Origin: Myxococcota bacterium
GTDB taxonomy: Bacteria > Myxococcota_A > UBA796 > CAJQPC01
Direction: 5' to 3'
NCBI GenBank assembly: GCA_036229005.1
Contig: JAZAMN010000052.1
Coordinates: 224,001 to 288,000 of the forward strand
DNA: 64,000 nucleotides
Shown here one piece after another: positions 34,683 to 42,457 of the stretch. The notes beneath the pieces were generated by a model. The model was given only the letters and a program-made list of their open reading frames with translations, made no database searches and was not told the origin of the DNA. Made by a program: the position numbers and the translations under genes. Positions within the stretch are counted from its first letter, which is position 1, and each line of letters begins with the position of its first letter.

Positions 34683-35963
34683 TTGGAGTACATGGAACAG
34701 GCTGAACTGCTGGAAGCCTTCAAGGCGAACCTCGAGGAGTACGCCAAGCTCCGGACCTTCATCAACAGGGCTCGCGAGCAGGAGGGCAAGTTCTCCTCGG
34801 CGACCATTGAGAAGGTCATCATGAAGAACGAGATCGCTTCGATCGAGGTCGGGGACACGATCCGCCCTCAGGTCACGGAGATCGAGGGCCAGATCCTCTC
34901 TCTCAGCGGCCAGATCGAAGAGGTCAACTCCAAGAAGGCGTCCGCCGACGAGGAGATGGAGGAGCTCCAGCTCCGCCAGGCCATCGGTGAGCTCTCCGAC
35001 GAGGAGTTCGAGACCGAGGCCGCTTCCTTCAAGGAGGAGCTCGAGGCCGCCGGTCAGCGCCTCGAGGATCTCGAGTCCCAGCGCACCAACTTCTCCGAGG
35101 CGCTGGCCCTTTGGGTCGAGCTCGCCACCGACGCGGAGCACGAGACGGGTGTGAGCGGCTCCGAGCCCGAGCCTGAGCCCGAGCCCGAGTCCGAGGTTGA
35201 GGACGAGGTCGAGTTCGACGCCGGCCTGGATGAGGAGGGCGCTGAGGTCGAGTTCGAGGACGTGGCTGAGTTCGACGAGATCAAGCCCGCTCCCGTCGAG
35301 GACTTCGGCGAGAGCGACGAGGAGGTCCTGTTCACCGAGGAGCCCAACGACGACGGCGTGCACTCCAGCACCGAGCACATCCGTGAGGATCTCTCCGGTG
35401 TCTTTGGTGATGACGTCGCCGCCAGCGTCCGCGTGGGCGAGGAGGAGGAGGTCATCTCCATCGAGGCCGGCGAGGCCGCCGAGGACGCCGAGGACGGTGA
35501 GTCCGTTGACGTTGACTTCGGCTTCGAAGGGGACGAGGAGGACATCCTGGGCGGCGACGTCGAAGATGTCGAGATCGACCTCGTGGGCGATGCGGATGAC
35601 CTGGGTCTGGACGACGACGAGATCCCGGGCGCCGACGATGAGGCACCGGCCGCTGGCGACGACAACCGCCGCGCGCTCCTGATCTACCAGGAGGGCACCG
35701 CCGAGGAGCAGATCTACCCCTTCATGGGTGACACGTTGACCATCGGTCGCGGTCGGGACAACGACATCCAGATCAAGAACGACTCCAAGGTCAGCCGCTA
35801 CCACTGCAAGGTGTTCCGCCGCGGCGACAACTTCTACATCGAGGACAACAAGTCCTCGAACGGCTCCCTGGTCAACGGTGAGCTGATCACGGAGCGTCGT
35901 CTCTTCGGTGGGGAGGAGGTCATCATCGGAGAGACCTTCTTCCGGTTCCGCATCATGGAGTGA
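34683..35963 (+). CDS. Coiled-coil / acidic linker / C-terminal FHA domain protein
   Basis: TIGRGRDNDIQI...VSRYHC...DNKSSNGSLVNG (FHA); heptad-rich N-terminus; TTGACG-N18-TAAAAC promoter at 34591-34620. Confidence 0.9.
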   Translation: MEYMEQAELLEAFKANLEEYAKLRTFINRAREQEGKFSSATIEKVIMKNEIASIEVGDTIRPQVTEIEGQILSLSGQIEEVNSKKASADEEMEELQLRQAIGELSDEEFETEAASFKEELEAAGQRLEDLESQRTNFSEALALWVELATDAEHETGVSGSEPEPEPEPESEVEDEVEFDAGLDEEGAEVEFEDVAEFDEIKPAPVEDFGESDEEVLFTEEPNDDGVHSSTEHIREDLSGVFGDDVAASVRVGEEEEVISIEAGEAAEDAEDGESVDVDFGFEGDEEDILGGDVEDVEIDLVGDADDLGLDDDEIPGADDEAPAAGDDNRRALLIYQEGTAEEQIYPFMGDTLTIGRGRDNDIQIKNDSKVSRYHCKVFRRGDNFYIEDNKSSNGSLVNGELITERRLFGGEEVIIGETFFRFRIME

Positions 35964-37187: not shown

Positions 37188-38012
37188 TCAGCGCAGGGCG
37201 GGGGCCACTGCGTCCCCTTGGCGCGCGGGCAGGTCCTTTGAGGACATGGGAGCGGGGGGCTGCTGGTGACCTCGCCGAACCAGGATCAGTTCGGCGGCGA
37301 TGGACACCGCGATCTCAGCGGGGGTTTGGGCGCCGAGGCTGAGTCCCACGGGTGCGCTCAGCTTCGTGAACAGCCCGGGATCCATGCCCGCGACCTGGAG
37401 GCGCTGGAAGAAGCGCGTGACCTTGGCCCGCGACCCGATCATCCCAAGGTACGCGAAGGGGAGGGGCAGCAAGGCCTCCACAAGGTCTTGGTCGAGCTGG
37501 TGATCGTGGGTCAGGATCAGCCCGTAGTCAGCAGGTCCGAGCGCAGGGAGATGGAGGCGGGGGTCGCCTTCGTGCCGCTGGAAGTCTGCGAATGCCGGGT
37601 GCTCCAGCAGCTCAGGGCGGGGGTCGTAGACCTGCACGCGGAAGCCCAAGGTGGGAAGCAGAGGGGCCAAGGCCTGGGCCACGTGGCCGGCTCCCCAAAG
37701 GTGCAGCTCAGGCTGCAGGTCCAGCACCTCGATCATCGCCTCCATCGCGCCTCCACAGCACATTCCGAGCTCTTTGGTGAGGTTGCGGGCCACCCGGCGG
37801 TTCTCGCGCAGCTCCAGGGCCTCCAGGGCCTCGGAGACCAGCAGATGCTCCCAGGCGCCACCCCCGACGGTTCCGGTTGTGGTGCCGTCCGCGTACACCA
37901 GCATCCGCGCCCCGCCGCGCCTGGGGACCGAGCCCTTGACGCCAATCACCGTCACCAGTGCCGCTGGGGTGCCGCTCTGGCTGGCTTCGGCAGCAGCGAT
38001 CAGGACTCTCAT
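37188..38012 (-). CDS. xdhC: XdhC/CoxI family molybdoenzyme maturation factor
   Basis: GSVPR..GARMLV, GTVGGG, LGMCCGG, WGAGHV, THDHQLD, GMIGS, TPAEIAVSI. Confidence 0.9.
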   Translation of the reverse strand: MRVLIAAAEASQSGTPAALVTVIGVKGSVPRRGGARMLVYADGTTTGTVGGGAWEHLLVSEALEALELRENRRVARNLTKELGMCCGGAMEAMIEVLDLQPELHLWGAGHVAQALAPLLPTLGFRVQVYDPRPELLEHPAFADFQRHEGDPRLHLPALGPADYGLILTHDHQLDQDLVEALLPLPFAYLGMIGSRAKVTRFFQRLQVAGMDPGLFTKLSAPVGLSLGAQTPAEIAVSIAAELILVRRGHQQPPAPMSSKDLPARQGDAVAPALR

Positions 38013-38116
38013 GGACAGCGCTCCAGCAGCGACTTCGTGTCGCCTTGGTGCCCTAACCGCGCAGACGTTTGACCGTCTCTGGGCCAGTGCCTACCATCAC
38101 CACCCTTGGAGCCCCA

Positions 38117-39988
38117 ATGCGTCCCCTGAGCTGGTCCGGCCTCTTGTCGTTGCTCGTGGTCTCGACCGCAGCGCAAGCGCAGGGTGCTCCCGAGCCGGAG
38201 GCAGCAGGAGAGGTGGGGCTGTCGGATGGCTCGCAGCCTCCGTCCTCACCCCCTCGCCGGGTGCCCATTCAGAGCCACGCAGAGGGCTGGGTGTGGCACG
38301 AGGTGCTGTCGACTCGGGCCGGCATGATGGACCTGGCTCAGGACCCCCAGCGCCCGACCACGCTGCTCGCGGTGGACCTGAACGGCGGTGTCTGGCGCAG
38401 CGATGATGGGGGCCGAAGCTGGACAGCGACCCTCGATGCGGCCGCGCAGGAGGTCCAGAACCTGGACCAGGAGGATCTGCTGCTGGAGGCGGAGGCCACG
38501 GCGCAGGACTTCCTGGACGACCAGGAGGTCGAAGAAGAGGGGGACTTTGACGACGAGTCTGAGCTGGTGGACGAGTTCTCCGTCTCTGCGGATCTGGTCG
38601 ACCTGATGGTCATGCGGGAGGGGGTCTCGCCGCAGGGGCCCTCCCAGCGGCTGGGTGGGGTCCTGTGGTTCCACCCTGAGCGCGGTGGCCTCGCGCTGCT
38701 CTCCCGGGCCGATGGGCTCTGGCGCTCCAACGACTCCGGCATGACCTGGCGCAAGCAGTCCGAGCTGTCCACCGCCACCAGCTTCACGCTCACACCCTCT
38801 GGCCTGCTGCTGGCTGGCACCTCGGACGGGGTCGTGTACAGCCGGGATCTGGGGGGCTCCTGGCGGCCCGCCACCGGCATCCCCACCGGGACGCGCGTGC
38901 GGGACCTCGCGGTCAGCGCTGGGCTCGTGCTCGCGGCGACCGACGAGGGCCTCTACCTGTCCGGAGATGGCTCTGCGTGGGCGCCGGCGTCGGGCTTTGG
39001 CGAGGTGAGGGCAGACCTCCGGGCCCTGGCGTCCGACCCGCGGATGGAGGGGGGGATCTGGATCGCGACCGACAACGAGGTCCTGCGCAGCGACGACGTC
39101 GGCCAGTCCTTGTTCGCGCTCTCCGGGACCCCGCTCCCGGACACGGAGAACCTTGTCCTCGCTGGCGGGGGGCAGCTCCTCGCAGCGACGAGCGATGGCG
39201 TCTGGGAGTCGGTGGACGGCGGCGTGGTGTGGCGCCCCGTGTCCTTTGGCCTCCCGGGCCCGCTGACCAAGGACATCCTGGCCGTGGCGGACGGCCTCGT
39301 TGTCGCCAGCGCCGACGGCATCTTCCTGCTCAAGCCCGAGCAGCAGAGTCAGGCCCACGTCGCCCCGGAGCTCGAAGGGCTCCCCCTGAACACCGTGGTC
39401 GGTATCGCGGTCACGAGGCCGGGCCTGGATCCCTACAGCTACGGCATCCGTCCGGGGGCGAGCTGGAGTCAGCGCCTGATCCCCAACCTGGTCGTCAAGG
39501 GGAACCTCACCGACCAGAGCGCGCTGGCTGCGGACTTCACGACCCCCACCACCGGCAGCAACTCCGCGGCGCTCCAGGAGCGCTGGTACGTCACCGCAGA
39601 GCTGCGCTGGGAGGGCTTCCGGAGCGACTACCAGTCCTCCGGGAGTGGGGTCGCGGACGGTGGAGACGCCTTCTACGTGGTGCAGGGCTCCGTGCTGTCC
39701 ACCACCGACCCGAACGCGATCCCGGTCGCGGCCGCGAACGTCCAGACCGCTGGGCTCAAGTACCAGCAGAACCTCACACGGCAGGTCGTCGACCTCTACA
39801 ACGCGCGCATGAAGCTCGTCTCCGAGCGCGCGGACCTGCCCCCTGACGACCTCCGAACCCAGACGCTCCACGAGCTCAAGATCCTGGAGACCACGGCGCT
39901 GTTGGATGCATACACCGACGGCGCCTACTCCGCTGCCCTCCAACCAGCGGGCCCCAGCCAAGAGGGCCCAACGGGAGAGACCCCATGA
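38117..39988 (+). CDS. Secreted BNR/Asp-box beta-propeller protein with C-terminal half-TolC-like module
   Basis: Signal peptide ending AQA; Asp boxes RSDDGGRSW, RSNDSGMTW, SRDLGGSW, ESVDGGVVW; C-terminus homologous to next gene. Confidence 0.75.
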   Translation: MRPLSWSGLLSLLVVSTAAQAQGAPEPEAAGEVGLSDGSQPPSSPPRRVPIQSHAEGWVWHEVLSTRAGMMDLAQDPQRPTTLLAVDLNGGVWRSDDGGRSWTATLDAAAQEVQNLDQEDLLLEAEATAQDFLDDQEVEEEGDFDDESELVDEFSVSADLVDLMVMREGVSPQGPSQRLGGVLWFHPERGGLALLSRADGLWRSNDSGMTWRKQSELSTATSFTLTPSGLLLAGTSDGVVYSRDLGGSWRPATGIPTGTRVRDLAVSAGLVLAATDEGLYLSGDGSAWAPASGFGEVRADLRALASDPRMEGGIWIATDNEVLRSDDVGQSLFALSGTPLPDTENLVLAGGGQLLAATSDGVWESVDGGVVWRPVSFGLPGPLTKDILAVADGLVVASADGIFLLKPEQQSQAHVAPELEGLPLNTVVGIAVTRPGLDPYSYGIRPGASWSQRLIPNLVVKGNLTDQSALAADFTTPTTGSNSAALQERWYVTAELRWEGFRSDYQSSGSGVADGGDAFYVVQGSVLSTTDPNAIPVAAANVQTAGLKYQQNLTRQVVDLYNARMKLVSERADLPPDDLRTQTLHELKILETTALLDAYTDGAYSAALQPAGPSQEGPTGETP

Positions 39989-40809
39989 CCGCCAGCCTGC
40001 TCCTCATCCTCGGCGTCCAGCTCGCCCAGCCCCTCCAGCTCAACCAGTCCGGGGCAGAGGCCTTCGCGCAGTTGGACACCATCGATCTGCCCACCGCCGA
40101 GGCCATCGTGTCCTTGCGCAGTGAGCGCGGACGCCTGAACTCCGTCGAAGAGCTGCGGGCCATTCCCGGGATGAACGACCAGCGCCTCAACGAGCTGCGC
40201 GTGAACACCTCGGTGGACCTGCAGCCCCTGGATGTTGGTGCGGCGCGCTTCTCCTCGGCTGACGAGGTCCTGGCCGCCTTCGACCACGAGCCCAGCGTGC
40301 AGGCCGTCCAGACCCTGGCGATGAACTACACGAACACCAACCGGGAGCAGGTGGAGAGCTGGCTGCGGGCCAGCAAGAACAGCGCCTGGCTGCCGGAGCT
40401 CAAGCTCAAGTACAACTACCAGGACACCTTCGGGCAGGACTTCGAGTACCAGGACCAGAACGACAACAACGTCGACCCCTTCATCGACGACTCGGACACC
40501 CAGCAGCGCTGGTATGGCCAGGTCGAGGTCCGCTGGAACCTGGACGAGCTGGTCATGTCCTCGTCCCAGATCCGCGTGATCTCGGAGGCCCAGGACGTCG
40601 TCAAGCTGCGGGACACGGTGCTCACTCAGGTCACCGGCCTCTACTTCGACCGCCGCCGCCTGCAGGTGGACATGCTCCTGGATCCCCCCAGCGATGTGCG
40701 CGCCCAGGTCGACCAGACCCTGCGCCTGATGGAGCTCACCGCCGAGCTGGATGCCTTCACCGGTGGGCAGTTCAGCGCAGAGGTCGCCCGGGGTGTGCAG
40801 ACCCGCTGA
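39985..40809 (+). CDS. Secreted ComEA-type helix-hairpin-helix protein fused to half-TolC-like module
   Basis: LNQSGAEAFAQL...AEAIVSLRSERGRLNSVEELRAIPGM (ComEA HhH); AWLPELKLKY, VRWNLD, QVTGLYFDRRRLQ; ATGA coupling. Confidence 0.75.
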   Translation: MTASLLLILGVQLAQPLQLNQSGAEAFAQLDTIDLPTAEAIVSLRSERGRLNSVEELRAIPGMNDQRLNELRVNTSVDLQPLDVGAARFSSADEVLAAFDHEPSVQAVQTLAMNYTNTNREQVESWLRASKNSAWLPELKLKYNYQDTFGQDFEYQDQNDNNVDPFIDDSDTQQRWYGQVEVRWNLDELVMSSSQIRVISEAQDVVKLRDTVLTQVTGLYFDRRRLQVDMLLDPPSDVRAQVDQTLRLMELTAELDAFTGGQFSAEVARGVQTR

Positions 40810-40921
40810 GGTCCCACACCTGGGCCCACCGCTTTGGGCTGAAACCACTTGGAAACGATGCCCGCGCTGGACTCCCCAAGCGAGGTGCGTGGGCTACCTG
40901 TAGCCGCCCCGGAGGTAGAAG

Positions 40922-42457
40922 ATGGTCGACGGCCACGAGCTGGTTCTGATCCTGGACTTTGGCTCCCAGTACACCCAGCTCATCGCGCGGCGTCTCCGCG
41001 AGCAGGCGGTCTACTGCGAGATCCGCCCCTGCACGGACAAGGTCCCCGCCGAGCTGCCCAAGCTCAAGGGACTGATCCTCTCGGGCGGCCCCGACAGCGT
41101 GCTCAGCGACAAGCGTCCGGCGTTCGACCCGGCGTGGCTGGAGCTGGACGTGCCCGTGTTGGGGATCTGCTACGGCATGCAGCTCCTCACCGTCCTGGAC
41201 GGCGGCAGCGTCGAGCGCGGTCAGAAGCGGGAGTACGGCAAGGCCACCCTCGAGCTTGGGCAGGACCCTGGCCGCTTGTTCAAGGGCCTTTCGTTGGAGT
41301 CCCAGGTCTGGATGAGCCACGGTGACCACGTGGAGCGTGCACCGGAGGGCTACCAGGCCGCCGCGCTGTCCTCGGGCTGCCCGGTCGCTGCCTTCGAGAA
41401 CGCCAGCGCGCGCCGCTACGGGCTGCAGTTCCACCCCGAGGTGACCCACTCCCACGAGGGCACCCAGCTCCTCAAGAACTTCCTGTTCGACATCTGCGGC
41501 TGCAGCGGCGACTGGTCGATGGGGAGCTTTGTGGACGAGCAGGTCGCGCTGATCCGCGAGAAGGTCGGCGACGGCAAGGTGATCTGTGGTCTCTCCGGCG
41601 GCGTGGACTCCAGCGTCACTGCGGCGCTGATCCATGAGGCGATCGGCGACCAGCTCACCTGCATCTTCGTGGACCACGGGCTGCTGCGTCTGGGTGAGCG
41701 CGAGAGCGTCGCCAAGGAGTTCTCGGACTACAACCTGGTGGTCGTGGACGCCGAGGCGCTCTTCCTGGGCAAGCTCGCCGGCGTCACCGACCCGGAGACC
41801 AAGCGCAAGATCATCGGCGAGACCTTCATCCGCGTGTTCGAGGAGGAGGCCCGCAAGGTGGGCGGCGCCAAGTGGCTGGCGCAGGGCACCCTCTACCCGG
41901 ACGTCATCGAGTCGGTGTCCTTCAAGGGCCCCAGCGCGACCATCAAGAGCCACCACAACGTGGGTGGCCTGCCCGAGGACATGGAGCTCAAGCTCATCGA
42001 GCCTCTGCGGGAGCTCTTCAAGGACGAGGTCCGCGCCTTGGGCCGCGAGCTGGGCCTGAACCCCTGGCGCATCGACCGCCACCCCTTCCCGGGGCCAGGG
42101 CTGGCCATCCGCATCCTGGGGGAGATCACCAAGGAGCGCTGCGATGTGCTCCGCAAGGCCGACCACATCGCCATGGAGGAGATCCGCAAGGCGGGGCTCT
42201 ACGACGAGATCTGGCAGGCCCTGACGGTGCTGCTCCCGGTCAAGACTGTCGGAGTCATGGGCGATGAGCGCACCTACGAGGCGGTCGCCGCCCTGCGCTG
42301 TGTGACCTCGACCGACGGCATGACGGCGGACTGGTACCCCATGGACCCGCGCGTGCTGGGGCGCATCTCCAGCCGCGTGATCAACGAGGTGCGCGGCATC
42401 AACCGCGTGGTCTACGACATCAGCTCAAAGCCCCCCGCCACCATCGAGTGGGAGTAG
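40922..42457 (+). CDS. guaA: GMP synthase (glutamine-hydrolysing)
   Basis: [44 protein letters not shown]. Confidence 0.98.

Follow-up and report, generated by a model that had tools for sequence, protein, structure and literature searches.

A two-gene unit of a Myxococcota bacterium encoding predicted single-repeat relatives of TolC-type outer-membrane proteins

We analyzed a 64,000-nucleotide stretch of a Myxococcota bacterium (GenBank assembly GCA_036229005.1, contig JAZAMN010000052.1, positions 224,001 to 288,000; hereafter referred to as the window) and focused on two coupled genes, A and B, whose products end in a common module that resembles one repeat of the TolC family. The reading that we favor, at a probability of about 0.5, is that A and B are exported and form a short, adaptor-free, TolC-like outer-membrane uptake pore, in which the helix-hairpin-helix (HhH) domain carried by B would be a relic or a protein contact. 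The features concerned are as follows, in window positions.

38117-39988, + strand: gene A, 623 aa; likely signal peptide, then an Asp-box beta-propeller that holds an acidic insert, then one TolC-like module
38270-39340, + strand: BNR/Asp-box beta-propeller of A, approximately residues 52-408; Pfam matches below cut-off and Atlas neighbors
38465-38575, + strand: acidic insert in the propeller, approximately residues 117-153
39380-39946, + strand: module of A, approximately residues 422-610; homologous to the B module, with hydrophobic alternation on both strands
39611-39721, + strand: A-specific insertion after the second strand, approximately residues 499-535; not in B; seen as an alignment gap and in the column profile
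39985-40809, + strand: gene B, 274 aa; likely signal peptide, followed by a degenerate HhH domain and one TolC-like module
40033-40200, + strand: ComEA-type (HhH)2 domain of B, residues 17-72; Pfam HHH_3, both hairpin motifs degenerate
40249-40800, + strand: module of B, residues 89-272; AlphaFold2 model, Pfam OEP 22.5 bits
40396-40533, + strand: long beta-hairpin of B, residues 138-183; base amphipathic, distal part polar and Asp-rich

A shared module resembling one TolC repeat

An initial annotation of this DNA had described a C-terminal module common to two translationally coupled, secreted proteins; the module and the coupling were confirmed, and both proteins begin with a likely signal peptide. 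The C-terminal ~190 residues of A and B matched at 27% identity over 161 columns (BLASTP, E = 9e-10) and with 99.4% probability in a profile-profile comparison (E = 5e-22), and the motifs quoted for the module all occur in the translations. The start of B overlaps the stop of A by ATGA (39985-39988), and the two-gene unit is conserved, with A adjoining B on its upstream side in relatives too (orthologs of A, P0274-P0285). We found 281 homologs of B, which was matched in 28 of the 41 genomes of its order, a few of these matches covering the HhH domain only. The module profile matched 110 of 201 genomes of the phylum, i.e., over half of those sampled, and 2,398 clusters at 50% identity, four complete genomes carry it, and no third copy appeared when the bacterium's own genome was searched for further paralogs. 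The closer records are titled Myxococcota or Deltaproteobacteria and the more distant ones Nitrospirota and Omnitrophota; the Nitrospirota and Omnitrophota loci consist of one gene (propeller plus module), and the pair is found in many Myxococcota loci. Among the best 150 of the 2,398 clusters, the N-terminal part was of propeller length in 67, absent in 46 (signal peptide and module only), an HhH domain in 18, and partial or other in 19, and none of these 150 representatives carried two full modules in one chain. Neither Pfam nor NCBIfam holds a model specific to the module (one chance-level NCBIfam match in 110 members), and a literature search of incomplete coverage returned no published description of a single-repeat TolC family.

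TolC-family channels are two-repeat trimers thought to stem from a gene duplication (PMC8277102; 10.1101/268029). In an AlphaFold2 model built from a 110-row alignment (pLDDT, the predicted local distance difference test, 92), the module of B starts with short helices, followed by a hairpin of two ~21-residue strands and by a 40-residue helix that a turn links to a 22-residue return helix; the full-length model of B shows the same layout. Its predicted helices of 14, 40 and 22 residues correspond to helices of 23, 67 and 36 residues in the OprM repeat (PMC8277102), and thus reach ~60% of the OprM length. The Pfam family OEP (PF02321, cut-off 22 bits) aligned with residues 130-226 of full-length B at 21.6 bits and with the module alone at 22.0 and 22.5 bits; a Pfam scan of gene A gave no OEP match. 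Across the module family, OEP was the family that most members matched, with 21 of 110 reaching E ≤ 0.1 compared with 3 for the runner-up family. We also compared the module profiles with 13 OEP repeats of the same genome (P = 8e-4 for B, P = 0.002 for A; adaptor control, P = 0.72), and the alignment matched the Leu-Pro that precedes strand 1 as well as the aromatic-Asp end of strand 2. A Foldseek search with the B module listed TolC-family chains in all of its first 21 rows, including three titled "membrane protein from Pseudomonas aeruginosa", which we take to belong to that family. VIA placed 133-172 residues onto exactly one TolC repeat (Z 4.7-5.2; root-mean-square deviation, rmsd, 4.6-6.5), and a structure search of the Atlas returned an OEP cluster at a template-modeling (TM) score of 0.58, behind eight clusters of the module family itself. 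The proposal of a single TolC-like repeat per chain is therefore supported by the predicted layout together with marginal Pfam, profile and fold matches. Because these marginal matches agree but no single test is significant, we call the remote kinship with the TolC family likely yet weak.

The module of B, as predicted, repeats within one repeat the element order of the outer-membrane factors (TolC, OprM, OprN, CusC and CmeC; OEP), namely short helices, a conserved Leu-Pro, two amphipathic transmembrane strands, a long helix and a split or return helix. Unlike these proteins, A and B carry one repeat per chain instead of two, and the ~100 Å tunnel with a coiled-coil tip has no counterpart in the predicted 40- and 22-residue helices (67 and 36 residues in OprM); we did not file the module as an outer-membrane-factor member because it departs in repeat number and tunnel length. 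Further differences are the polar extension of its hairpin (~21 residues per strand), the fusion to a propeller or HhH domain, the presence of two paralogous subunits, and the lack of an adaptor or RND neighbor.

The long hairpin of B carries a regular pattern: hydrophobic residues make up 93-100% of the outward-facing columns 139, 141, 143, 178, 180, 182, 184 and 186, compared with 1-24% of the intervening columns, and the hairpin of A has the same alternation. Covariation was computed from 447 sequences (effective number, 342), and 6 of the 11 strongest couplings fell on the antiparallel register i+j = 321, with pairs from 138-183 to 152-169 (mean z 4.3). The amphipathic columns and this register suit insertion of the hairpin into the outer membrane, where the initial annotation had placed the system. 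By itself, a single hairpin is not stable across a membrane and must have neighbors to close a barrel, from which we infer an oligomer. Alpha-hemolysin-type lysins also give two strands per chain to a common barrel (10.1101/268029), as is predicted for A and B; the A/B module differs from them in having the helical layout of a TolC repeat, and lysins led no search. At the hairpin tip of B (40447-40479) we observed a loop that resembles the calcium-binding motif Dx[DN]xD, and Pfam EF-hand_5 weakly matches 3 of 110 members.

The propeller of A and the HhH domain of B

Gene A matched the Pfam BNR, Sortilin-Vps10 and Beta-prop models, all below cut-off, and its feature and structure neighbors in the Atlas are BNR/YCF48-type propellers. 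The product of A is thus like the YCF48- and sortilin-type proteins in having Asp-box repeats in a predicted beta-propeller fold, and differs from them in the TolC-like module joined to the propeller and in a conserved acidic insert. The insert claimed in the initial annotation is real, with 16 Asp/Glu in 30 residues here and 11-17 in 12 orthologs, a density above that of all 91 unrelated BNR propellers (3-9). A pairing of the insert with the arginines of the HhH domain was considered and is not supported, because the insert persists where the HhH domain is absent (mean Asp/Glu per 30 residues in related genomes, 12.2 beside B without HhH and 14.3 beside B with HhH). The A-specific insertion in the module would lie, by analogy with the TolC layout, at the periplasmic base of the barrel. 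In about half of the orthologs, a Cys pair (C-W-G-x-C) opens this insertion (39605-39721), with Cys at both columns in 31 of 61; the pair, which is absent in this gene, is perhaps a disulfide.

The N-terminal domain of B has the (HhH)2 fold of ComEA/ComE and, as there, is preceded by a probable signal peptide (identified by eye). Pfam HHH_3 (PF12836) matched residues 17-72 over its cut-off (E = 6.6e-7), Foldseek superposed the domain on ComEA (8dss) with an rmsd of 1.5 over 64 columns, and the score against TIGR00426 was 28 bits (cut-off 53). The GIG hairpins and the DNA-contact lysine of ComEA are missing. In Vibrio cholerae ComEA, transformation is abolished by K63E, by K62/63A and by G60E, and K62/63A also eliminates DNA binding (PMC3879209). 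We compared 118 orthologs of B with 55 ComEA-like domains of the same order, which were chosen as the best ComEA matches, a choice that favors the motif. The closing glycine of hairpin 1 was Gly in 12 of 118 orthologs and Asp in 75 (controls, Gly in 55 of 55), the lysine column held Lys in 0 of 118 (controls, 48 of 55), and the closing glycine of hairpin 2 was Gly in 10 of 118 (controls, 54 of 55); R48, E55, R58 and R72 are fixed instead. Degeneracy had been noted for the first hairpin only, which held up, and it extends to the second. Net charge was rejected as a test of DNA binding because the control domains, like those of B, are acidic (means, -3.6 against -2.5).

Further comparison of 69 distinct close A-B pairs revealed that 47 encode B with an HhH domain, whereas in 22 an intact B comprises a signal peptide and the module, mostly in the same gene context. 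The fusion that the initial annotation relied on is therefore absent in part of the orthologs and kept in the rest. Its suggestion that B binds DNA through this domain is not supported at this locus, where the hairpin glycine and the lysine are lost across the 118 orthologs. The proposed co-occurrence with comEC is uninformative, comEC being present in 195 of 201 genomes and the module in 110 of the same 201; comEC is not linked to the pair at this locus. Away from the pair, the genome encodes canonical ComEA-like proteins (their genes on other contigs), ComEC and four secretins. Given the lost motif, the operons without HhH and these canonical genes, the sequence comparisons make DNA uptake through this HhH unlikely.

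Outside this group, we found HhH fusions in 12 of the 18 HhH-bearing representatives and at nine metagenome loci (named sources, CSSED10-310 and Riflebacteria). Among 20 pattern-matched distant fusions, 18 have the hairpin glycine and 10 have a Lys or Arg within three residues, so that these members carry canonical-looking HhH domains. At L211, L212, L218 and L254, genes for a propeller-module protein, an HhH-module protein and an Ig or Ig/lamin-tail lipoprotein form an operon near yebC or ruvC, and yebC-ruvC is found at L212, L224, L254 and L255. A separate ComEA gene directly follows the module genes at L208, where it stands in tandem with an HhH-module fusion and a divergent copy of the module (L208:2636-4731) near a convergent BamA-type gene. 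Genes for ComEC-like metallo-beta-lactamase lipoproteins flank L161 and L216. Upstream of the module, comM is found at L142, L143, L247 and L279, probably one related group, accompanied by yraN at L143, L247 and L279 and by comEC at L142. Of the 69 loci in the more distant set, 11 have a lamin-tail gene downstream of the module and co-directional with it, and in the close set the count is 0 of 53, the two sets being split by a rough motif and the lamin-tail profile including some of the counted genes; Big_5/LTD lipoproteins recur across the distant groups. Extracellular nucleases such as ExeM contain lamin-tail domains, as do many other hydrolases, and PMC6085458 gives the role of these domains as unknown. 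Since the remaining neighbors of the distant loci are mostly unrelated housekeeping genes, some DNA genes near the module are expected by chance. These HhH domains and gene contexts leave room for a DNA link at the level of the family, as distinct from this locus. In a FastTree tree of 190 modules (in which row L050 was wrongly labeled canonical by the motif pattern), the N-terminal labels cluster; the tree is unrooted and weakly supported, and leaves gain versus loss of HhH undecided.

A candidate outer-membrane ring and competing explanations

The absence of membrane-fusion and inner-membrane transporter genes beside the pair, as first annotated, is borne out, with xdhC (divergent) and guaA as its flanks, and it extends to the family. 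Adaptor and RND profiles built from the same genome had no match at any of 197 distinct module loci, 80 of them with 4.5 kb or more of upstream and 2.5 kb or more of downstream sequence; no profiles were run for ABC and MFS partners. By comparison, an adaptor gene is found no more than 7 kb from 10 of the 11 canonical OEP loci of the same genome. Adaptor or pump partners could be unlinked here, as they are from tolC in E. coli. The short helices and the lack of adaptor and RND neighbors argue against a classical efflux duct. We also observed ftsX-type and MatE genes adjoining a few module loci.

In the reading that we favor, A and B subunits would stand side by side, probably in a mixed ring of about six, and six chains would copy the TolC trimer. 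Each chain is predicted to give one amphipathic hairpin to a common membrane barrel, and the polar distal half of the hairpin to prolong this barrel beyond the cell as an outer crown. With their short helices, the subunits are predicted to form a periplasmic barrel ~60% as long as that of TolC, without the adaptor-docking tip. Because the N-terminus of a TolC repeat is periplasmic, the propeller is placed in the periplasm, where it would hang and catch or pass on entering material. The A-specific insertion may narrow or gate the lumen, and the HhH domain of B, having lost the DNA-contact motif of ComEA, is likely a relic or a protein-contact domain. Polar nutrients entering by passive uptake would be the likeliest traffic. 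The lead candidate would be breakdown products of nucleic acids, because purine-salvage genes neighbor the pair here and DNA-handling partners occur in other lineages.

Several observations weigh against this reading. The profile probability against OEP repeats was just 25% for B and 13% for A, and a sequence search of the PDB with two module profiles gave nothing under E = 0.3. In the structure comparison that had been proposed as a check, TolC-family chains lead the Foldseek results, but none reached E ≤ 0.001 (best E = 0.045; TM-scores 0.26-0.43). The VIA Z-scores for the TolC repeat lie below those of plain helical bundles, and the top 50 of a wide fold search (best Z 7.3) held helical bundles only and no TolC-family chain. 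No clear second, inter-chain strand register emerged from the covariation, the signal at i+j = 327 being only slightly raised (mean z 1.2), and the open lumen of the putative ring is a prediction. The purine-salvage neighbors are confined to one order and the neighbors elsewhere vary widely, and the purine gene neighborhood may be inherited gene order. The invariant R48, R58 and R72 could form another nucleic-acid surface.

Some of these points bear on a reading in which the TolC likeness is superficial and a helical domain is anchored shallowly by its hairpin, or paired through it as a dimer, with no barrel formed. As this would have it, no structure or profile score against TolC is more than marginal and the covariation lacks a second strand register, but four different methods converge on the TolC family with the same LP...W-x-L-D landmarks aligned, and the strict inside-outside alternation suits a membrane barrel; we consider this explanation most unlikely. 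A doubtful but more substantial alternative is a ring that acts as a plugged outer-membrane anchor or scaffold and fastens the fused periplasmic domain (propeller or HhH) rather than serving as a conduit. The interchangeable N-terminal domains counted above among the 150 representatives (67 propeller-length, 46 none, 18 HhH, 19 partial or other), the insertion of A at the barrel base, which could plug the ring, and neighbor genes without a single common pathway are all in keeping with it. The strongest covariation, by contrast, links inward-facing residues of the hairpin (15 pairs), as in a long ordered barrel, and module-only proteins, which have nothing to fasten, are common.

Two further readings concern other traffic. 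In the first, the ring would export or display surface proteins, for instance Ig/lamin-tail lipoproteins and PEP-CTERM proteins, and the propeller would act in the periplasm as a chaperone or receptor. This reading draws on the 11 of 69 more distant loci with a lamin-tail gene behind the module, on the recurring Big_5/LTD lipoproteins and on the fact that TolC-family channels export proteins. It is very unlikely given that none of the 53 close loci has a lamin-tail gene downstream, that no energizing partner is encoded and that a 12-strand lumen passes unfolded chains only. Uptake of DNA by the HhH domain of B, for which we see rather little chance, has in its favor the fusion of HhH in 110 of the 119 homologs listed (precomputed Pfam), the hairpin glycine (18 of 20) and nearby Lys or Arg (10 of 20) in distant fusions, and the distant loci with a separate ComEA, ComEC-like lipoproteins, yraN-comM or yebC-ruvC. 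It is opposed by the near-complete loss of the hairpin 1 glycine (12 of 118), the lysine (0 of 118) and the hairpin 2 glycine (10 of 118) that the controls retain (55, 48 and 54 of 55), acidic substitutions at such positions killing transformation in V. cholerae (PMC3879209). The 22 of 69 close operons without HhH and the canonical ComEA-like genes, comEC and four secretins elsewhere in the genome stand against it as well.

A bolder proposal, which we hold as speculative and on balance improbable, is that the single-repeat family is a living pre-duplication ancestor of TolC and, at the same time, a way for DNA or pieces of it to cross the outer membrane into the cell without using a secretin. 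Lamin-tail proteins and ComEC-like nucleases would then act outside, the half-TolC ring would form the passage and the ComEA domain would serve as a periplasmic ratchet; this lineage would have kept the pore for purine scavenging, with the role of the HhH domain changed.

Widespread one-repeat relatives of TolC would make the duplication origin of TolC channels testable, and the family would show how a channel or anchor can be built from single hairpins and mixed subunits without a pump. If members with an intact ComEA domain do carry DNA, they would represent an entry route without a secretin, and this locus, at which the DNA link looks lost, would offer a useful natural contrast to the members with intact HhH.

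Flanking genes and further observations

The remaining features of the locus are listed below.

37188-38012, - strand: xdhC, divergent neighbor of A
38069-38097, + strand: sigma-70-like promoter match upstream of A; consensus match only
38117-38179, + strand: likely Sec signal peptide of A, 21 aa, ending in AQA; read by eye
40922-42457, + strand: guaA (GMP synthase), downstream neighbor

The promoter match agrees with the consensus at 9 of 12 positions (1 found versus 0.1 in shuffles), and no terminator-like site was found on the + strand of 37900-41000; guaA is perhaps co-transcribed with the A-B pair. In the 69 close A-B loci, some of which are cut short, guaA is kept in 59 and xdhC in 45, and a gene resembling 5'-deoxyadenosine deaminase flanks the pair in 34. 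This deaminase-like gene is divergent in many relatives (e.g., L023:11221-12516) and is not found at this locus.

Elsewhere in the window, an FHA-domain protein (34683-35963), whose N-terminal part is a coiled coil and which has a long acidic linker, is encoded near dnaB in 15 of the 21 loci compared. At L151, L152 and L153, a module-only gene is followed by a lamin-tail protein gene, with the genes for a FadL-type porin and a lipase-like protein in convergent orientation, and a short gene upstream in L151 and L152 resembles a worn copy of the hairpin. One open frame (L138:3358-5580) joins a lamin-tail domain, a PEP-CTERM motif, a propeller and a module, and is a fusion or a lost stop. Six records titled Klebsiella or Enterobacterales (L074, L078, L079, L104, L109 and L118) hold the same operon at 42-59% identity to B, and are likely mislabeled metagenome bins.

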